Source: Octopus sinensis (lineage: Eukaryota). Taken from it: a DNA stretch of 64,000 nt. Of this stretch, positions 2,086 to 48,676 are shown piece after piece; position 1 is the first letter of the stretch, and each line of letters opens with the position of its first letter. The DNA lies in NCBI RefSeq assembly GCF_006345805.1, contig NC_043018.1:27776001-27840000 (forward strand), given 5' to 3'. A program made the translations under genes and the position numbers. The notes below the pieces were generated by a model. The model had not been told where the DNA came from, made no database searches, and saw only the letters and a list, made by a program, of their open reading frames with translations.

Positions 2086-2999
2086 AAGTTATTTCTGTTT
2101 TTAATAGTTTTTTGTTGTTGTAGTAGTAGTAGTAGTAGTTTTTCTTCATTCCTATGTATATCGCTAGCACAGCAGTTAAGGCTATTTCCAGTACCGAGGT
2201 ACCTACCATTGACAAAGTCAAATGCGGCCGAAATCATGCGATCTGGTTGTAGCTGTGATTTTCTGCCGCTGGCGATTGCTATCATGTGCTTTTATACACC
2301 AAAAAACCATAAGAGAGTTTTTCTTTCCTGGTAAATATTACGGTATTTGTGAGTTCTTACGGTATTTGTGTTCTTCATTTGTCTTATGTCTTGTCCAAAA
2401 TATTCTTAACATTTTCCCATACAAGTTTATATTTGGTCCAATTGGCGTAAGTAGATTAAAAACATTTTTCTATCTTTAGAAAATGGTATCGACCATTGAC
2501 AAAACCAAATAATTCAAAATCAGCCAACAAATATTAGAGATACTGGAATCAATATAATTTGGTTGACGATGGATTGAACTTATAATATGGAGAAATGATT
2601 TTCACTGATAAGTCTGTAGAAAGTAGAATCATGAAATGGTTGAGAGACAGAAAAGACAAAGGGAGAATCACTGAATATCTCGTAATGTTAAAAATTGCTG
2701 TCGTGCAATAAATTTAAATTAATTTTCTGTAGTTAAAATTTTCAATAATAAAAGAAGTTCAATAACCACATTTCGATAAAAATCAATTACAATTAGAATT
2801 CTTAAGAATTTTCTAGACCGTGTAGTCTTTAATAATTACTTTCTTTTTGCAAATGTTACATTCTCCCGACTTATTAATAAGCAGCTTTCTTTATTACTGC
2901 AGAGATCTCCACATTTCTAAACCTTTTCGTCGATGTCTATCTTTCTGCACAATATAATGATAATGGACCATTTACACAGCGTTATTCTTGTTTCTGAAA

Positions 3000-3315
3000 G
3001 CGCATGGCTTAGTGTTTAGAGCGTCGGTTTCACAATCATGAGGTATTGAGCTCGATTCCCGGACTGGGCTGTGTTGTGTTCTTGAGCATGACACCTTATT
3101 TCATGTTGTTCCAGCTCATTCAGCTGTAGAAATGAGTTGTGACGTCACTGGTGCCAAGCTGTATCAGCCTTTACCTTTTTCTTGGATAACATCAGCGGCG
3201 TGGAGAGAAGACGCTGGTATTCAGGGGTGAGGGCTGGTCTTCCATAAACAACCTTGTCCGGAGGATAACTTTCTAAATACAATCCCACGGTCCTCATGAC
3301 CGAAAGGGGTCTTTG
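3000..3315 (+). mobile_element. tRNA-derived SINE, family D
   Basis: GCGCATGGCTTAGTG (A box), GCTCGATTCCC (B box), TGTGTTCTTGAGCA core; reverse-complement relative at 32225-32558. Confidence 0.75.
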
Positions 3316-37217: not shown

Positions 37218-37257
<40 letters not shown>

Positions 37258-37930
37258 CTAAAGCGTGAATGTGGGTTGTATGTGTGTGTGTGTGGGAGTA
37301 TGAATAAATATTGTGTTGAAGTATTTAGCTATTTTATTTATTTTAGTTGCCTAGACATTTATGTGTATGTATAGGGATATATATATAGGTGTGATTTAGT
37401 GTATGTAGTTAGATATGGTTATATATAATTAGGTATATGCGTATGGGTGTATATATAGTTTATTATTATATTATTATTATTTTTTTTGTTTTGTTTATAT
37501 TTTATATTTTATATTTTATATTTTATATTTTATACTTTATATTTAATTGTTGATAGGTTTTTTTTTAGTTAATATTGTTTATATATTGATTATATGGATT
37601 ATAGATAGGTTATATATGGATTATATACTTATATTTTTTCATTCATACTTTAATTATTTTAAAAATTATTATTTTATATTAAAATATTGATTTTTAGATT
37701 GGAAGTCCCCTGAAGATTGTCGATCAAGACAAGAAACGATTGTAGTGGCGTGGTTTTTTTTGACTATTTATTAAAATTTTATGTATTGATTAGTCTTTCC
37801 TTGTTTGTTTTGCAAATAGTGGTTGTCTCGAATATATTTTATAATATTTTACTATAAAATCGATTTATTCCTAATCTGATTTTTTCCCTGTAATTTTGGA
37901 TTTATTCCCTAATATTTATTATTTATATAA
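37258..37930 (+). repeat. 5' pseudo-LTR (~675 bp)
   Basis: Near-identical to 45208-45892; most differences are 1-2-nt indels in runs. Confidence 0.92.
37706..37748 (+). ncRNA. Type I hammerhead ribozyme in 5' pLTR
   Basis: CCC-CTGAAGA-TTGTC-GATCAA-GACAA-GAAAC-GATT-GTA-GTGG. Confidence 0.8.
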
Positions 37931-37974
37931 TATATAATTTTGTATATTGAGTGTAATACCTCAATTTCGTAATT

Positions 37975-40450
37975 ATGGATTTTACAGGTAAGATAGAACC
38001 GCTGTTTTGGGATTCATCTTTGAAAGATATTCCTATTCCTTCTAGAAAGGAATTTATTTTGAAACTTGTTAATAATGTTAAAGATTTTATTTCTAGAATT
38101 AAATGGAAAGCTTTTTACTATAATTTTTTTTTTATTTAATGATATTGATAGTAGGAATGATATTTTACCTCTAAATTTAAATCTAGAAAGGAACTCCATT
38201 TAAAGAATTACAATTACTTGAAGATAGTATAGGAAGGTGGTAAAAAATATTGAATTCCATAATACCCAAATAGAAATAATGAATATTAAGGAATTTAGCA
38301 ATTAAAATTAAAGATATGAGAAATATGGATGGTATTATAGTACAATCTGATACAAGGAACTTAATAATTAGATGTTAATTATATGATAAACTATTAGGAA
38401 AGAAATAATTAAAAAATATAAAATTGTTCCAGATGATATTCTTTATAATATTATAAGGCCTCTAAAGTAGTAATGTTAAAATATGAGTTGGATAATAAAC
38501 TGACCTTATGTACCTTTGAACCCCAGAATTAACTCTTAAAGACCATAAAGATAATTTTATTCAGACCCTAAAGTTAGATTAATTTGCCCATGTAAATCGG
38601 ATCTAGGTAAATTAGTAAATTTATTTTAGATAAATATATTGATAAGTAAATAAACTTATTTTTAAAATTATGGTTTAGTAATAATAATACATTGAAATGG
38701 TTTATAATATTAAAGATAAAAATCGTTATAAATTTATTCAAATAGATATAGATATTATTATTCTTCTATTAATGAAATTGTGTTTAATAAAGCGCTTATT
38801 TTCGCAATGAATAAAGCGGGTATGTTACGGGAAGAGTTAATGTAATTAAAATGGCTAGGAAATCGCTAATTAAATATAAAAAATAATTATGGGCTAGGAA
38901 TGATACGAGAATTGTTTTGATATACCTATGGGAGCACCAGATTCTGCACAGGCTACTGATTTAGTAGGTATTTTTCTTTTATCTGAACTCCAATTAGAAA
39001 ATCTTAAGATAGAGGGTGGTTTATATAGAGACGATCTTCTACTAGTTACAAAGAATTGTACTAATAGGAATCTAGAAGTATATAAGAAAAACTATATAGT
39101 TTCTTTAAAAGATATGGTTTAGTATTACTATATATAAGGAGAATTATAATGTTAATTATTTAGATGTTAATTTTAATCTTATTACAGGTAAACACAACCA
39201 TATCATAAACTTAATGAGAACCTTAGATATATAAATGTTAATAGTAATCACCCATTCTCTATTAAAAAATCGTTGATTAATAATATAAGTAAACGTATTT
39301 CATTACTCTCTTATGATTAGAGATTTTTAATAAACATGCTAATTATTATAATGAGGCCCTTAGAGGGGCAGGTTATAATAGGAATATTAAATTTTATAAT
39401 ATTAGTGATAAGATTTAATTGTTAATTTTCGAGATACTTCTAATAATAATTATAATTTTGTTAGGTTTAGTGGTAAAAAAATAATATTAAAAAAAATAAT
39501 AAAAATTATAAAAATATATAAGAATAATAATAATAATATAATATAATAATAATATATAATAAATATAATATAAGAAAATATAAATAAAAATAATTTATAT
39601 TATTATAATAATTATATTGATAAATTTAATAATATTAATAATTCCTTAAATGCTGTACATAGATATAATTCTGATAATAATTTTAATAAAATAAAGAATT
39701 ATAAATATATTTATAATAATGATAATAATAATAAGGTTAATAAGAATAAAATTTGTTAATAGTTCCTTATGGAGATCAAGTAAAAACGAATATTATTAGA
39801 GATTTTAGATGTTATAGAACTATTTATTAGAGATAATCGTAATATAGAAACATTTTCTCTTTTAATAATTTTGGAGTTGGTTACTCTACCACTAATAATG
39901 TTGGTAACATTATTTCTTCATTTATAAATATAAACTGAATAATTTTATTAAAAGAAATTATTTGATAATAATATTAATAATGATAAGACTTATATTAATT
40001 GTACATGTAGAGATAAATCTAATTGTATATTAAAAAATAATTGTGATATTAACGATGTAGTGTATAATGTATAGTTACATTACATGATAATAACTTTAAG
40101 AATAATAATTACAAAAAAGCGGTTTATATAGGTTCTACTTCCTCAAAAATAAACTAAGAATCGCACAACATATGAATTCTTTTAAAAATAAAAACTTAAT
40201 CACTCAACAACCGGACTTAGTAAGTACATTTGAGTCTTAAATCACTAAATATTAATTATAGTTTAATTTGGGAAATAATTTGTAAAACTAAATCATATAC
40301 TATAGGAGCTAATTGTTGTTTTTATGCTCTAATGAGTTTAAAGAAATTTTATTTTATAAGTATGATAATTTACTTAATACTGGCGAGGAGCGCAAAATAA
40401 AATGCAGACATAAGTTACTTTACCTATATAATAAGTTTCATGATAAATAG
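37975..40450 (+). pseudogene. PLE polyprotein RT + GIY-YIG (Naiad-like), heavily frameshifted as assembled
   Basis: MDFTGKIEPLFWDSSLKDIPIPSRKEFILKLVNNVKDFISRIKWKAF; TLKDHKDNF; KVRLICPCKSDLG; FIQIDID; MGAPDSAQATDLVG...GLYRDD; NYLDVNF; SNHP; NCTCRDKSNC...VVY...VYIGST...R..QH..SF...GLSKYI; WEII; CC..C.NE...LLN..E...KCRH. Confidence 0.9.
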
Positions 40451-41596
40451 CAATAATAGTTCCCTTTTAGGTTACTTTAGTTTAGTTTAAATTAGTTTAG
40501 ATAATATATTTTTGGTTATGTTGTCTAGGCTTTAATTATAGTTAGTCTTTATTATATTTCTTTGTTTTAATTAGTTCATTTTTAATGTATATATTTTGGA
40601 GGATATATTTAATGTTTATGGGTGTTATTTAGTGGTGTTTTTATTGAGTTTTGTATGTATGTGTGAATGTTTAAGATCCCTTTGTTTTTTGTTTTTTATT
40701 TGGTATTTGAATTGACAGATTTTATTGGTATTGTCTGTTATAATAAAGTAACACACCCCATAACAAATATAAGTGCCCACTTCATTCGATGTACCTGGAA
40801 TTGCATGTGAGCCTCGCATATACACCTAACGGCCACTCCCGCCCCACATGGATAAATAAACACATACATCCCCAAAAATGGGCGTAATCCCATTCACACC
40901 AATTATATGTATACAATTATACACACTAGAATAATACATAACTAACCCAATATACAGAACATACTAAAATCACCAACTAACCACTATCACAAATGAAACC
41001 CACACCCATACAATGACAAAATTCCTCCCTCCATACCCAATTTACACCCACATAGTAATCCAATATATTCATCCATATATGGACGCAAGTGCGTGAAGCA
41101 CATGCACATAATTAATACGGTACAACCCCTAATACACACTTATATAAATACGTATTAAGCTCGACATCCACAGTGATAAGATTACACCCACTCACACCCA
41201 GATGGGTGAATTGCACAACCAGGAACGCACACACACACGTGTGCGTTTTTTGATTGTGCAATTCGCCCATATGCATGTATGCGGGCGCGATTACATTGTT
41301 GCATATATCGAGCCAAATTAGCATGCATATGTACATGTGAGGGGTACACGCAAATGACGTGCGCGTGTACCCCCTGCATTTATACCCGTGCGTAATATAC
41401 ACATGGAGACTACCACACAGGTACAAATGTGTATAGTAATGGGAGCCCCATCACTACACTCATGTATACTCTCATCCATCCCTCACCATCCGCACGGATG
41501 TAAGTGTATCTCCGGTGTATATGTTGAGGCTTTATGTAGCGTTGTGGAGGCGAATGTCGTTGAAATTGTGAATGAATGGGTGGAGTTGGGAATTGT

Positions 41597-44460
41597 AACC
41601 GGGTGGTGGACTAGCGTTGCTTGGAATTGGGAATTGATTAGTGTGGTAGTGAGGTAGGCATCGGGAATAGGTTTGGGTTGCTGTAGGTTGTTTGTTAGAG
41701 CTGCTAGGGTGAGCTAAAGCTCATAAATGTATATAATGATTTTTCATGGTAGTTTTTAAAGAATCCATTCATTATACATTTTTTTTACGTAGTGTTGGTT
41801 TGCTCTACGTGGATATAGTTTTTAGTTCCATTTATTCTATTTCTCCATTCATAATTTAAATGACGTTTAATTTCTATGGCGCGTATTCTCTCTTTTTTTT
41901 ACATAAGTTATTCTATGGTAACGTAATTTTGGTTTGGTTTTTTTAACGGCAAGAATTTAATTTCACTTCATTATTTGAAATTGACTTGTAGTATGTATTT
42001 TATTTATCCTTATGTCATATTGTTATTTTGATATTCTGGTTAATTACGATGTATTTAATGTTGTTTTCATAGGAGTGTTATGTATATGAGATTGTGTGTG
42101 AGTTTTTAGTTGTATATTTTTATTTATCTGTATGAGTGTGGGTGTGTAAATATTGTTGTATATATCGAGTTTAGTGAGTATATATATGAGTATATGTGAG
42201 GAGTATATGTATCTGTTGTGTGTGGTGTGTTTTTTGTGTGTGTGTGTGGTTGTGTGTGTATGTGTATATGGTTGTTATTTAGGTTTTGGGATGTTGTGTT
42301 AATTTGTCTGTGTGGGGTGGGGAGTGGGTTTTGGTGTATATTGAGGTTTATAAATTAGGATAGGTATGTGTATAAGTCGTGGGTCTGTGGTTTACGAGTG
42401 TGTATTTGTGTGTGAATGTTTAGGTTTAGGGGGATTACTATATAGGTTTGTTATAGAGTTTAGCAAAGGGAGATTTTATCGTTATATGTTTTTATGAGTT
42501 TTGTTTTGGTTTATCATGGTTATTTTAGGGATTCGTGGTAATTTGTCTATTTTCGATGTTGGTTGTTTATTACATTGTTTCATTCATATTTTTTTGAGTG
42601 GTGTTCGTTTTGCCACGTGAATAACCGGTGGTGGACTAGCGTTGCTTGGAATTGTGAATGGGATAGTGTAGTAGTGAGGTAGGCATAGAGAATGGGTTTG
42701 GGTTACTGCAAGTTGTTTGTTAGAGCTGCTAAGGTGAGCTAAAGTTCATAGATGTATATAATGATTTTTCATGGTAGTTTTTAAAGAATCCATTCATAAT
42801 AAATTTTTTTTAAGTAGTGTTGGTTTGCCACGTGGATATAGTTTTTAGTTCCATTTCTATTTCTCCATTCATAATTGAAATGACGTTTACTTTCCATGGC
42901 GCGTATTCTTTTTTTACATAAGTTATTTCTATGGTAACGTAATTTTGCTTTGATTTTTTTAACGGCTAAGAATTTAATTTCACTTCATAATTTGACACTG
43001 AATTGTAAGTATGTATTTTATTTATCCTTATGCCATATTGTTATTTTTGATATTCTGGTTAATTACGATGTATTTAATGTTGTTTTCATAGGTGTGTTTA
43101 TGTATATGAGATTGTGTGCGAGTTTTTAGTTGTATAATTTATTTATCTGTATGAGTGTGGGTGTGTAAATATTGTTGTATATATCGAGTTTAGTGAGTAT
43201 GTATATGCGTATATGTGAGGGAGTATATGTATCTGTGTTGTGTGTGTGTGTTTTGCGTGTGTGTGTGTTTGTGTGTGAAGTGTATATGGTTTGTTATTTA
43301 GGTTTTGGGATGTATGTGTTAATTTGTCTGTGTGGGAGGGAGTGGGTTTTGGTGTATATTGAGGTTATAAGTTAGTATAGGTATGTGTATAAGTCGTGGG
43401 TCTGTGGTTTACGAGTGTGTATTTGTGTGTGAATGTTTAGGTTAGGGAGATTGCTATATAGGTTTGTTATAGAGTTTAGCAAAGGGAGATTTATCGTTAT
43501 ATGTTTTTAGGAGTTTTGGTTTATCATGGTTTTTTTTAGGGAATTTGTGGTAATTTGTCTATTTTCGATGTTGGTTTTTTATTACATTGTTTCATTCATA
43601 ATTTTTGAGTGGTGTTCGTTTTGCCACGTGAATAACCGGGAGGTGGACTAGCGTTGTTTGGAATTGTGAATGGAATAGTGTAGTAGTGAGGTAGGCATAG
43701 AGAATGGGTTTGGGTTACTGCAAGTTGTTTGTTAGTCTTTTTTTACATAAGTTATTTCTATGGTAACGTAATTTTGGTTTGATTTTTTAACGGCTAAGAA
43801 TTTAATTTCACTTCATAATTTGACACTGAATTGTAAGTATGTATTTTATTTACCTTTATGTCATATTGTTATTTTTGATATTCTGGTTAATTACGATGTA
43901 TTTAATGTTGTTTTCATAGGAGTGTTTATGTATATGAGATTGTGTGCGAGTTTTTAGTTGTATAATTTATTTATCTGTATGAGTGTGGGTGTGTAAATAT
44001 TGTTGTATATATTGAGTTTAGTGAGTATGTATATGCGTATATGTGAGGGAGTATATGTATCTGTTGTGTGTGTGTTTTGCGTGTGTGTGTGTTTGTGTGT
44101 GAATGTGTATATGGGTTTGTTATTTAGGTTTTGGGATGTATGAGTTAATTTGTCTGTGTGGGAGGGAGTGGGTTTTGGTGTATATGGAGGTTTATAAGTT
44201 AGTTTAGGTATGTGTATAAGTCGTGGGTCTGTGGTTTACGTGTGTGTTTGTGTGTGAATGTTTAGGTTAGGGGGATTACTATATAGGTTTGTTATAGAGT
44301 TTAGCAAAGGGAGATTTTATCGTTATATGTTTTTTAAGAGTTTTGGTTTATCATGGTTTTTTTAGGGAATTCGTAGTAATTTGTCTATTTTCGATGTTGG
44401 TTGTTATTTATTGTTTTTCATCATTCATAATTTTTGAGTGGTGTTCGTTTTGCCACGTGA
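41597..44460 (+). repeat. ~1.02-kb tandem repeat, 3 copies (third with a ~175-bp deletion), inside the PLE 3' region
   Basis: Unit start AACCGG(G)TGGTGGACTAGCGTTG at ~41597, ~42623 and ~43634; unit end TTTTGCCACGTGAAT; further diverged sub-repeats at 44460-45207. Confidence 0.92.
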
Positions 44461-45207
44461 ATTTTATTTTAATTCCATTTATTCCATTTCTCCATTCATT
44501 AATTTAGAGATGTTCGTTTCCAGAGCGGTATACTTTTTATATATATGTTAAGTTCCTTGGTAAAGTAATTTGTTTGGTGTATATGTTGAGGCTTATATGT
44601 ACTTGTGGGTGTGTGTGAGTGGGGTGGGAGTTTGTATTTGTTATGGGTGTGTGGTTTACGAGTGGTTTTTGTGTGTGAATGTATAGGTTAAAGGAATTGC
44701 TATATAAGTATGTTTTAGTGTTTAGTAAAGGGAGGTTTTATCATTTCTGTTTTGTGAGTTTTAGCTTATCATGGTAGTTTTATAAAAGAATCCATTCATA
44801 ATTTTTGTGTTTATTTGTCTGTGTGGGTTGAGTGGGTTTTTGGAGTATATGTTGAGGTTTATATGTATGTATTGGTATGTGTAAGTGGTGTGGGTATTTG
44901 TATATGTCGTGGGTGTGTGGTTTACGTGTGTGTATTGTGTGTGAATGTTTAGGTTAGGGGATTGCTATATAGGTTTGTTATAGAGTTTAGTAAAGGGAGA
45001 TTTTATCATTATATGTTTTTATGAGTTTTGGTTATCATGGTAGGTTTGATAAGGAATTTGTAGTAATTTGTGTCTATTTGCGATGTCTGTTGTTTTATTG
45101 CATTGTTTCATTCATAATTTTTAAGTAGTGTTCGTTTTACCAAGTGAATATATTTTTAATTCCATTTATTCCATTTCTCCGTTCATAGTTTTGAGTGATG
45201 TCCGTTT

Positions 45208-45892
45208 TCTAGAGCGTGAATGTGGGTTGTATGTGTGTGTGTGTGGGAGTATGAATAAGTATTGTGTTGAAGTATTTAGCTATTTTATTTATTTATAGTT
45301 GCCTAGACATTTTTATGTGTATGTATAGGGATATATATATAGGTGTGTGATTTAGTGTATGTAGTTAGATATGGTTATATATAATTAGGTATATGCGTAT
45401 GGGTGTATATATAGTTTATTATTATATTATTATTTTTTTTGTTTTGTTTTATATTTTATTTTATATTTTATATTTTATATTTTATACTTTATATTTAATT
45501 GTTGATAGGTTTTTTTAGTTTATATATTGTTTATATATTGATTATATATGGATTATAGATAGGTTATATATGGATTATATATATTATATTTTTTCATTCA
45601 TACTTTAATTATTTTAAAATTATTATTTTTATATTTTAAAATATTGATTTTTTAGATTGGAAGTCCACCTGAAGATTGTCGATCAAGACAAGAAACGATT
45701 GTAGTGGCGGTTTTTTTTGACTATTTATTAAATTTTATGTATTGATTAAGTCTTCCTCCTTTTTGTTTTTGCAAAATAGTGGTTTTGTCTCGAATAATAT
45801 TTTATATATTTTACTATAAAATCGATTTATTCCTAAATCTGATTTTTTCCCTGTAATTTTGGATTTATTCCCTAATATTTATTATTTATATA
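45208..45892 (+). repeat. 3' pseudo-LTR
   Basis: Direct repeat of 37258-37930. Confidence 0.92.
45665..45707 (+). ncRNA. Type I hammerhead ribozyme in 3' pLTR
   Basis: CCAC-CTGAAGA-TTGTC-GATCAA-GACAA-GAAAC-GATT-GTA-GTGG: stem I CCAC/GUGG, stem II UUGUC/GACAA, GUA site. Confidence 0.85.
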
Positions 45893-45937
45893 TAATATAT
45901 ATATACATACTATTATATATATATATACTAATTTAAT

Positions 45938-45971: not shown

Positions 45972-46497
45972 GATAAATCTCAGAGCAGTTATAAACGTAA
46001 GCAGTAACACATCGTGACCATATTGCCATTGAATATGGCTAACACCTAAGAGTGGATGCTACTGTAGTTTGTAGCTCCAGGAAGATATCTCCTCCAGCTG
46101 GCTATAGACACTATCTGTGTCCTCTCAGTAATTGTGAAGGGGAGTCATCCTCCCCGTCTTCAACATCATGATACACACGGACCCGAGTTTTCAAGGTGTT
46201 TACCTTTCCTCAGCGTGTGAACATTCATGGTTGTCGACGAGAAGTCAGCTCCCTGCACAAATACATATACTTTTTCCAGTTTCGATTGACACTGATATTG
46301 AAAATGTGAAATCAAACAATGATAAATCTCAGAGCGAGTCATAAACAGTAGCGGTAACACATCGTGACGCATATTTGCCATTTGAGAGGACACAGTGTGT
46401 CTATAGCCAGCTGGAGGAGATATCTTCCTGGGGCTACAAACTACAGTAGCATCCACCCTTAGGGGTTAGCCATATTCAAATGGCAAATATGCGTCAC
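45972..46497. mobile_element. Short non-coding element with direct and inverted terminal repeats and a central hammerhead
   Basis: Direct repeat ~45972-46030 / 46321-46385; inverted repeat ~46015-46127 / 46383-46497; related fragment at ~1725-1785. Confidence 0.7.
46174..46219 (-). ncRNA. Type I hammerhead ribozyme
   Basis: CACACG-CTGAGGA-AAGGT-AAAC-ACCTT-GAAAAC-TCGG-GTC-CGTGTG: 6-bp stem I, 5-bp stem II, GUC site; one extra A after GAAA. Confidence 0.78.
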
Positions 46498-46544
46498 TAT
46501 ATGTATAAATAATATATATGTATATATATATATAATATATATAT

Positions 46545-47025: not shown

Positions 47026-48022
47026 CAGTAGTTTTATTTTTATAGCGTGCTTTCCCTTCACTACCGAGCACAGCTCTGTGTGCCTTGGCATGTGCTGTGA
47101 TTTGTTGTGATGCTCTGATGGTTATTGTATGGAAAGTGTTCTGCGTAGGATGTGTGCAGTGCCTAGTAGTGCAATTTTCTGTATGTATATGTGTTTGTAA
47201 GTCCTGGTGTTTTTGTTATGTATTTGTCTGAATATTTTTTTATCATGCCTAATGCACCTACTATGATAGGAATTGTTTCTGTTTTCAGATTCCACATTCT
47301 AGTTACCTCTATTTCCAGGTCTTTTATTTGAGAGTTTCCATTTTCTTTTAGAGACACGTTGTCATCAGCCGGTATTGATACATCAATTAGAAAGCATTTT
47401 TTTTCTTCATGATCTCTGACAACTATATCTGGTCTGTTGGCCTTAATTTCCCTATCTGTGTGTATCGGCATATCCCAGAGTATGGTTGCTTTCTCGTTTT
47501 CTGTGACCTTTTCTGGTGTGTGCCTATACCATCTTTTTTCTGTTGTTATTCCATAATGTTGGCATAGCTTCCATGTATGTAGGTTCAACTCTGTCATGTC
47601 TGTGATATATTCCTTCTTAGCAAGACTGGGCAGCTAGAGATAATATGATTTATTGTTTCTTGTCCATCTCCACATATTCTGCAGTTACTTGTAATATTTC
47701 TTTTCATTACATGTTTTTGGTAATTTCTGGTGGGGAGGCTTTGGTCTTGTGCTGCAATTAAAAATCCCTCTGTTTCTGCTTTGAGTCCTGAGCTTCTCAA
47801 CCATTGCTGGGATTTTTCTTTGTCTATTTCTTTTGCGTTTATTTTAGTCCAGTATTCACCATGAAGGGGCTTTTCTTGCCATCGTTTTATCATGGTTCGT
47901 TGCTGTTCTATTTTAAGTTTGGATTTCATTTGTTTTATAGCTTTTTTGTTTCTCTTCATCTTCTCTTCTTCTTCATGTTTATTAGGTGGTATGATTTCTT
48001 GTTTGTATTTGTCAGCTTCCTT
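47026..48022 (-). mobile_element. 5'-truncated R4/Dong-like non-LTR retrotransposon (CCHC + RLE) in (TAA)n
   Basis: KPLHG, LKAETEGFLIAAQDQSLPT, CRICGDGQETINHIISSC (CCHC), LWDMPIHTDREIKANRPDIVV...LIDVSIP (PD..D), PIIVGALG; (TTA)n on both sides. Confidence 0.88.
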
Positions 48023-48038
48023 AATATTATTATTATTA

Positions 48039-48085
<47 letters not shown>

Positions 48086-48086
<1 letters not shown>

Positions 48087-48676
48087 GAGTGAGAGAGCAG
48101 TGCATGCCATCAAAGTGACACTGGGGTAAAATATACGAAGCCCAGTGTACATGACTACCCGTCTGATAAGGGTACACCAGGTACATCATCACAACCATAT
48201 GTGTGCAACATGGTGATCTCATATCAAGATAAACAGCACATGACCTTGCAGGTGGGGCCCAGTTAGAATTTTCCTCAGGTCGAGTAGCCCATCCTGCTCA
48301 AAAGGTCCCTGAATAAGAGTTGCTTTAGGATGTTGAACGAAACACCCATGTTTCCAGAGGTGAATTATTGAAACCCCAAAGAATCCCTCTCAATACATGG
48401 CTATGATGCTCCCCCACTACTTCTGCTCGTGATCAGAGATGCACAAATCGTCAACCACTAAGGGACATGCTCAACTGGTTAAGGTCAAACAACTGACAAG
48501 CAAATCTGTGGTATTGAGCAGAATATTTGCTGTAGCCCCATCTTTTATAACAAGACAAATCAATGTACATGATAACACTTCCAATCAGTTAAGATCAGAA
48601 GCCACGAGAGCCACTGCCTGGTACTGCATCAGGGCATTGGTACAGCATCAGGGCATGGTACTGCATCAGGGCATTT
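48086..48676. mobile_element. Unclassified ~590-bp interspersed-repeat-like sequence between (TTA)n tracts
   Basis: Complex non-coding block bounded by (TTA)n, with GGTAC(T)GCATCAGGGCAT three times at its right end; family not identified. Confidence 0.4.

Follow-up and report, generated by a model that had tools for sequence, protein, structure and literature searches.

An 8-kb Hydra-type Penelope-like element family of Octopus sinensis with a self-derived tail and A>G clusters likely left by ADAR editing

Penelope-like elements (PLEs) of the Hydra clade carry a reverse transcriptase (RT) followed by a GIY-YIG endonuclease, and are defined by the RWK, DKT, CxCx5C, CxxC and CxH motifs, the lack of CCHH, a hammerhead of canonical type and insertion at (TA)n (PMC8557442; published sources are cited here by PMC number). 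The 27 published Hydra entries measure 1080–3045 bp, with the hammerhead close behind the open reading frame (ORF), and the clade generally stays below 3 kb (PMC8557442). Here we analyze an element in a 64,000-nt stretch of the Octopus sinensis genome (NC_043018.1, positions 27,776,001 to 27,840,000; hereafter the window), which an earlier note, written from the sequence alone, had described as an oversized Penelope-like element, a description confirmed by its unit of 7959 nt. The anatomy of the element, its Hydra motifs, the family-wide tail and the self-derived inversions were directly established, as were strand-specific A>G clusters that recur across subfamilies, variable 5′ ends and a pair of discrete 3′ ends. 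We consider it quite probable that this is a recently amplified Hydra-clade element with a 5.25-kb self-derived tail, in which the A>G changes of the inverted copies likely reflect host ADAR acting on fold-back RNA and were likely fixed by reverse transcription.

Similar to the published Hydra elements, the window element has their domain order, motifs, canonical hammerhead with a short palindromic stem III and (TA)n target, while its ~8-kb unit is ~2.6-fold the longest published entry (3.0 kb) and its protein contains an ~110-aa Asn-rich insertion. Chlamys elements span 3.3–8.2 kb, several families being lengthened by tandem repeats (PMC8557442), so that element size alone is a modest novelty; however, these repeat-swollen PLEs carry an N-terminal endonuclease, mostly lack a hammerhead and reside in algae and protists. 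Terminons are likewise oversized hammerhead-bearing PLE relatives, but they are endonuclease-deficient and telomeric and have grown by extra ORFs (PMC6431247), in contrast to the non-coding self-derived tail of the window element. The literature searched held no account of long PLE tails of this type, its coverage being incomplete and a prior description possible; tail lengths outside this genome were taken from a published table.

In the family, a single ORF encodes the RT and then a C-terminal GIY-YIG domain. The protein carries RIKWK (RWK), QSDKTR (DKT in place of DKG), LKDHK and GLYRDD, together with the cysteine motifs CTCRDKSNC (the CxCx5C linker), CYLC (CxxC) and CRH (CxH), while CCHH was not found in it and, by eye, its GIY-YIG core is without the two-Cys pattern. 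LKDHK, GLYRDD and IPIP-type motifs are also present in published Hydra proteins (PMC8557442 supplement). By these sequence features the window element is an oversized new family of the Hydra clade and not a Naiad, and because its N-terminus and hammerhead differ by eye from those of Hydra-1_Obim, it is regarded as a separate Hydra family. A Pfam scan of two family proteins gave no significant match, a sequence search of solved structures gave none, and the sole named relative returned was a partial match to an octopus protein; the best fold matches of the predicted protein model were telomerase RTs, with TERT on top.

The RT plus GIY-YIG gene announced by the earlier note lies with its quoted motifs at 37975–40450, but its frame is broken in the window copy, in which no stop-free stretch of at least 80 aa was found. 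Against an unbroken natural copy, the window gene has 46 deletions (36 in one-base runs) and 9 insertions, while other copies with equally few substitutions have just 0–12 deletions, suggesting that the frameshifts are probably for the most part assembly error. Natural unbroken frames occur in L026 (797 aa to the stop) and L029 (from the start codon), the loci being numbered L### in the source assembly searched, a 2.7-Gb genome labeled G000.

The two direct repeats that enclose the RT gene and the long tail (37257–37936 and 45208–45901) were found as proposed, with 93.5% identity over 704 columns and differences of 5 substitutions only and 27 gap events. Their length of ~680 bp is peculiar to the window copy, as it marks the truncation point of this copy ~490 nt before the cut, and is not a family size of the pseudo-long terminal repeat (pseudo-LTR). 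The ORF stop is 4757 nt from the 3′ repeat and 5253 nt from the predicted hammerhead cut. A first look at DNA level gave 2972 candidates for the hammerhead end, 822 for the RT, 576 for the hairpin block of the tail and 1453 for the tail repeat, the best 40 at 92–98%; 43 loci were then chosen via ORF, hairpin-block or hammerhead-end matches, and 40 more were added later. At the 43 loci one set of tail parts, arranged in several ways, comes after the ORF, with tail lengths of 1.3–5.4 kb in the family and of 5178–5287 nt at 7 other loci on 4 contigs, confirming that the tail is integral to the element. The possibility of a nested foreign element or a misassembly was rejected, because the same tail architecture recurs at many loci; the tail is, moreover, homologous to itself.

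The tail is non-coding in that no conserved frame was found in it, the stop-free stretches of the hairpin block (120–215 codons) varying in frame and strand among copies, but it is not featureless, and within it lie a tandem repeat of ~1027 bp and an inverted duplication. Two full repeat copies (41596–42622 and 42622–43633) are followed by an internally deleted third (43633–44462), the three being 91–95% alike, and 1–3 copies per locus occur elsewhere. The tail as a whole has a G+T-rich composition, with A at 24, C at 9, G at 23 and T at 43%. Its end is homologous to the 1027-bp repeat (z 26.5), while an AC-rich block is the reverse complement of the tail end and repeat (z 7.8 and 4.8 vs. local shuffles). 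Both arms of the fold-back start from 41238/41239 at one module position in inversion-free relatives (1819/1823 in L082 and 1922/1923 in L164). The tail is self-derived, one GT-rich 3′ module having been copied both in tandem and in inverted form to build it, and the AC-rich block is, to judge from its sequence, a captured fold-back junction of the kind formed at the 5′ ends of these elements.

Further features were noted at single loci. At L019 with L056, the upstream unit is ~2 repeat copies short of the downstream unit, which may reflect a template slip within the insertion, later recombination or assembly collapse. L020 is duplicated together with its flank (L071), the 3′ flanks being identical, and L028/L045 form a multi-unit array whose units share an ~185-nt ORF insertion. 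In L161, a subfamily D copy, a ~600-nt unrelated repeat is inserted in the 3′ end at tail positions 2620–3220. Other Hydra families of this genome have stop-to-hammerhead distances of 0.65–0.7, 1.0–1.9, 2.1–2.2, 2.8, 5.0 (L083) and 5.6 kb (L172). A large Hydra-type radiation (L094–L113) shows many open frames of 780–960 aa with Asn-rich insertions, and hammerheads with a long stem II and differing palindromic stem III octamers; a protein related to these families gave 120,902 first-look candidates.

The tail is probably tolerated, dispensable cargo, because L015 (G000:C4:121825600-121835599) bears a 1334-nt tail in tandem, a 4.08-kb deletion variant with an identical junction in both units, because 46 nt of one hairpin arm are deleted in 10/10 subfamily C copies, and because tails of 0.65–0.7 kb occur in other Hydra families. 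The best-surviving alternative, though in our judgement an unlikely one, is that the tail is functional, as a promoter or enhancer for the downstream copy or as an RNA structure needed in transposition, the edits being incidental. It would fit the position of the tail upstream of the next ORF in tandems, the recurrence of long tails in the sister families L083 and L172, and the CpG-rich hairpin block, which folds better than shuffles (z −4.4 on the plus and −5.0 on the minus strand). However, between subfamilies A and C the tail diverges by 6–7%, ~3-fold the 2.3% at fourfold-degenerate sites, while the hammerhead diverges by 0%; no double compensatory change was found among the RNAalifold-predicted hairpin pairs; and the block is absent in subfamily D as well as partly deleted in C.

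A>G changes were scored on the carrier sense strand against columns invariant in subfamily D, which comprises 5 loci without the fold-back. Inverted tail pieces showed A>G at 44–62% on one strand and at 0–4% on the other. The inverted arm of L029 carried A>G at 58/98, T>C at 0/46 and transversions at 2/204, its forward partner arm A>G at 30/59 and T>C at 1/124, and the inverted piece of L165 A>G at 49/79 and T>C at 0/38. In the window copy, 41487–41740 (segment 41480–41780) had A>G at 46/87 and T>C at 0/43 on the sense strand, while the right arm (41239–41456) had T>C at 43/97 vs. 2/45 for A>G, which corresponds to A>G on the complementary strand. In forward control sequence the counts were 1/54 and 1/102, and in earlier controls 0/58, 3/53 and 0/48. 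The clusters were confined to the inverted pieces and the partner arm, i.e., to sequence able to form long duplex RNA. Transversions were at 1–4% in L029 and L165, whose genes lie within 0.2–2% of those of relatives, and endonuclease genes differ by only 0.2–5.8% among the copies compared, indicating that the A>G change was fast. Compared with nine forward paralogs, two distant, poorly alignable families being left out, the right arm had T>C at 44/117 T's, while each paralog had 0–5 of ~125. That the right-arm C's are retained ancestral C's was rejected, because only 9/42 are present in the left arm.

The changes form at least two successive layers, each common to whole subfamilies. L029 carries the same ~1-kb block as the window copy but in the opposite orientation, and L165, which like the five subfamily D copies came from the 40 loci added later, is a second copy with the L029 orientation. 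As many as 42 of the 43 right-arm edit sites are common to L029, and of 53 columns compared between L029 and L165, 31 are edited in both, indicating a single first layer. Read in module orientation, the left arm (40752–41238) has old A>G at 19/50, which it has in common with L029, while on the present sense strand it has newer A>G at 16/107, vs. 0/111 in L029; all window-type subfamilies share 13–17 of such further left-arm changes that are absent from L029. Since these changes are missing in L029, in which segment 41487–41740 is also unedited, the second layer postdates the flip. Part of it is carried by the second tandem-repeat copy (A>G at 29/57). Among 24 loci with a hammerhead and an endonuclease identity of at least 95%, 18 were window-type, 5 D-type and 1 L029-type, which suggests a better spread of the edited forms in a sample that is biased toward the window type.

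RNA editing is normally not inherited, but A>G hypermutation of retroviral proviruses provides a precedent. Sorted by 5′ neighbor, A's were edited at 59/85 after U, 39/60 after A, 16/40 after C and 5/20 after G, a depletion of 5′-G (5/20 vs. 114/185, p=0.003) that was not significant in two earlier smaller neighbor tests; by 3′ neighbor, they were edited at 5/6 before G, 29/44 before C, 37/64 before A and 48/91 before U. Upstream-G depletion is an ADAR motif shared across animals (PMC5625713, PMC8096273). From this pattern we infer ADAR as the cause of the genomic A>G changes. Dense fold-back A>G with upstream-G depletion is likewise seen in ADAR hyper-editing of inverted repeats in transcripts, a process whose heavily edited examples include octopus repeats and lizard Penelope, but there the edits are in RNA only, while in the window family the pattern is in genomic DNA (PMC5625713). 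Another related process is APOBEC 'DNA editing' of retrotransposons, which also leaves deaminase-type clusters fixed in genomic copies, although as G>A made on cDNA, in contrast to A>G in inverted repeats inherited by subfamilies (PMC4866542, PMC2873906); the term ADAR does not occur in PMC4866542. In the literature searched, no transposon family was described as carrying inherited ADAR-type edits, this coverage too being incomplete and an earlier description possible.

Insertion ends were surveyed in 41 arrays (7 hammerhead regions unscored, 1 duplicate). Hammerhead regions ran into the next ORF in 29 cases, while 25 ended ~100 nt and 27 ~185 nt past the cut, i.e., 52/52 scored 3′ ends lie beyond the cut at two sites, and they run into (TA)n; the window copy terminates at the second site (~+185, 45884). 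Upstream partial copies start from ~+130 to −3800 relative to the cut, upstream copies running through it (24 starts measured, two at the data edge and one unreliable), and only the L015 array has its measured 5′ end at the cut. Inverted 5′ copies and arrays of >2 units are common. Genome-wide, (TA)n-joined ends did not pile up at the cut as 5′ ends, five equal bins containing 3, 6, 13 (cut), 27 and 11, and the 13 ends of the cut bin, within 4 nt of the cut, are mini-insertions. At L114–L137, mini-insertions of 100–185 nt consist only of the sequence between the cut and the two 3′-end sites, set in (TA)n, with two of them head to head at L114. Repeats within one locus are mostly 0.1–1% apart, vs. 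1.2–2.9% between loci (groups A/B).

These ends bear on the unit-length RNA of 37745–45703 that the earlier note predicted. The predicted cuts do lie 7959 nt apart, but such an RNA as the linear transposition template was weakened by the data and cannot be the only one, because the 3′ ends of copies fall ~100 or ~185 nt beyond the cut, and as upstream copies and 3′ ends span the cut and no peak occurs at it, the template extends through the hammerhead site. That both hammerheads cut and the linear RNA between the cuts is the template has, therefore, a low probability, even though the hammerhead is the most conserved part of the element, its stem III is of the dimeric type, and the L015 array and the 13 mini-insertions begin at or near the cut. 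In green anole Poseidon PAc, cleavage is dispensable in vitro, and RT starts internally at two sites, giving alternative 3′ ends at an AT-rich target with the hammerhead upstream (PMC11167929), as would be the case in the window family; however, the two start sites are 30–40 nt apart in Poseidon PAc vs. ~85 nt for the putative ones here, and, unlike in Poseidon PAc, the latter lie before the start codon in AT-rich target-like motifs (PMC11167929). The family end data fit internal initiation as well as the circle model that Cervera and de la Pena put forward (PMC4209133), without discriminating between them; they are also compatible with a 5′-to-3′ template jump on cut RNA or with a ligated circle.

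Exactly two CUGANGA cores, both on the plus strand (37710 and 45669), were found when both strands of the element were scanned, and no additional hammerhead was detected in the tail by this core scan. The type I hammerheads proposed for each repeat were thus recovered as two conserved cores with covariation, with the qualification that the 5′ one is one stem I base short compared with 52 identical copies among 82 family copies, and that Rfam gave no hammerhead match in the window at gathering score. Single-strand folding of the region did not give the hammerhead fold either, and the assignment rests on motif, stems, and conservation and covariation among the family and its relatives. The hammerhead diverges by 0–1.4% in the family. 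Within stem III, self-complementarity of the inner four bases holds in 135/137 matches and in 8/10 distinct octamers (overlapping loci counted repeatedly), an architecture known from dimeric hammerheads.

A history of the family consistent with the edited layers and the ends can be proposed. The GIY-YIG domain would nick the (TA)n target, and RT would begin at an internal position of the RNA, either ~100 or ~185 nt beyond the cut, as for anole Poseidon in vitro. It would then read through the hammerhead and continue over more than a single unit, on an uncut tandem transcript, by a template jump or on a circle, and such read-through would give partial tandems and inverted 5′ copies, from which template switches could carry an inverted junction into the tail. 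The resulting RNA hairpin would be hyper-edited A-to-I and re-integrated, producing the first layer in the original orientation retained by L029 and L165. A ~1-kb block would then have flipped, its newly inverted part being edited again as the second layer, and part of the second-layer segment would have been tandemly duplicated to give the tail of the window copy. A further, more tentative proposal, which we hold plausible but fall short of favoring, is that host editing acts as a heritable mutator: an inversion is captured, ADAR rewrites the hairpin, and the edited form, with less perfect double-stranded RNA (dsRNA), founds the next subfamily, so that the element would shed its dsRNA signature as the tail lengthens.

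Several observations weigh against the ADAR-edited Hydra family as described. The downstream-A preference reported for invertebrate ADAR editing was absent, with 37/64 for A vs. 82/141 for the other neighbors. Among recent private changes A>G was not in excess, numbering 15 in the tail vs. 28 for T>C, an ongoing low-level A>G bias among recent changes was not found, and fresh A>G clusters occurred in 0 of 2595 300-nt pieces compared with same-family references, indicating that fixed editing is rare and episodic. Inverted pieces also gained C>T (4/54 and 7/20), and recent sense-strand changes had C>T at 41/681 over G>A at 22/973, which ADAR does not explain. At L039 and L052, and for the inverted piece of L030, the repeats of one locus lacked the usual close similarity, and a complete unbroken ORF was found in 0/43 family loci. 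The clade placement comes with a quick 58-protein tree that held no Naiad, Penelope or Neptune outgroup, in which the family fell in a 25-row clade of this genome, adjoining two public proteins and placed among Hydra-type proteins, one of which (P0004) closely resembles Hydra-2_Amil by eye.

The C>T changes also provide the case for a gradual strand-biased mutation, combined with selection favoring G+T richness of the sense strand or hairpins weakened by G-U pairs, as the origin of the A>G clusters with no editing enzyme involved. The whole tail is G+T-rich, and at CpG the recent C>T vs. G>A counts were 15/129 vs. 4/130 in the tail and 6/55 vs. 0/55 in the ORF, with window 37975–42622 as the ruler. 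This C>T excess may come from single-strand deamination during transcription or from RT bias, and as a second bias it contributes to the low C content of the tail. A gradual bias is, however, improbable as what gave rise to the A>G clusters, because 50–60% of the A's have changed with so few transversions in copies whose genes are so close to relatives, both arms are changed on the same strand while forward controls stay at 1–2%, 5′-G is depleted, and recent changes lack an A>G bias. The Naiad assignment of the earlier note can practically be dismissed, since Naiads, with which the element has the (TA)n target and partial tandems in common, are defined by an N-terminal endonuclease, DKA, CCHH and no canonical hammerhead (PMC8557442), and are contradicted here by the C-terminal endonuclease, RWK, DKT, CxCx5C linker, missing CCHH and canonical hammerhead.

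The features of the element are listed in Table 1. Just downstream, a short element occurs twice in opposite orientation (window 46040–46165 and 46390–46500), and fragments of another non-LTR retrotransposon lie on the minus strand at 47163–48109, with what we take to be an RT C-terminal zinc knuckle and restriction-like endonuclease motifs.

Table 1. Coordinates of the element's parts in the window
Feature	Position	Strand	Basis
5′-truncated upstream copy of the unit 3′ end (pseudo-LTR); joins (TA)n/(CA)n flank	37257..37936	+	
Type I hammerhead, upstream; stem I one base short; predicted cut after 37744	37706..37748	+	
RT + GIY-YIG gene, Hydra type; ~840 aa in the family; ~110-aa Asn-rich insertion; frameshifted here	37975..40450	+	
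T-rich tail start	40451..40750	+	
Fold-back left arm, reverse complement of the GT-rich tail module; two edit sets	40752..41238	-	
Fold-back right arm; center of the fold-back at 41238/41239; 43/97 T>C, equal to A>G on the other strand	41239..41456	+	
Inverted module end, now G-rich; second editing layer; its 3′ part is the tandem-repeat head	41487..41740	+	
~1027-bp GT-rich tandem repeat array	41596..44462	+	
Tail end, mosaic built of the GT-rich module	44463..45207	+	z 26.5 vs. tandem repeat
Unit 3′ end (second pseudo-LTR); runs into (TA)n	45208..45884	+	
Type I hammerhead, downstream; family sequence intact; stem III octamer self-complementary; cut predicted after 45703	45665..45707	+	
Two family 3′-end sites, ~+100 (45806) and ~+185 (45884) from the cut; putative RT start sites	45793..45884	+	

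With the window family, the size known for Hydra elements rises more than twofold. Its two 3′-end sites would also extend to a genome-wide scale the internal start sites so far seen in vitro in one Penelope element, which constrains the role of the hammerhead. Unedited (subfamily D), once-edited (L029 and L165) and twice-edited, flipped (window-type) stages coexist in one genome. If the ADAR origin is true, the family would provide direct fossil evidence that transposition intermediates meet germ-line ADAR and yet still transpose, and a testbed for whether editing restricts or shelters retroelements.

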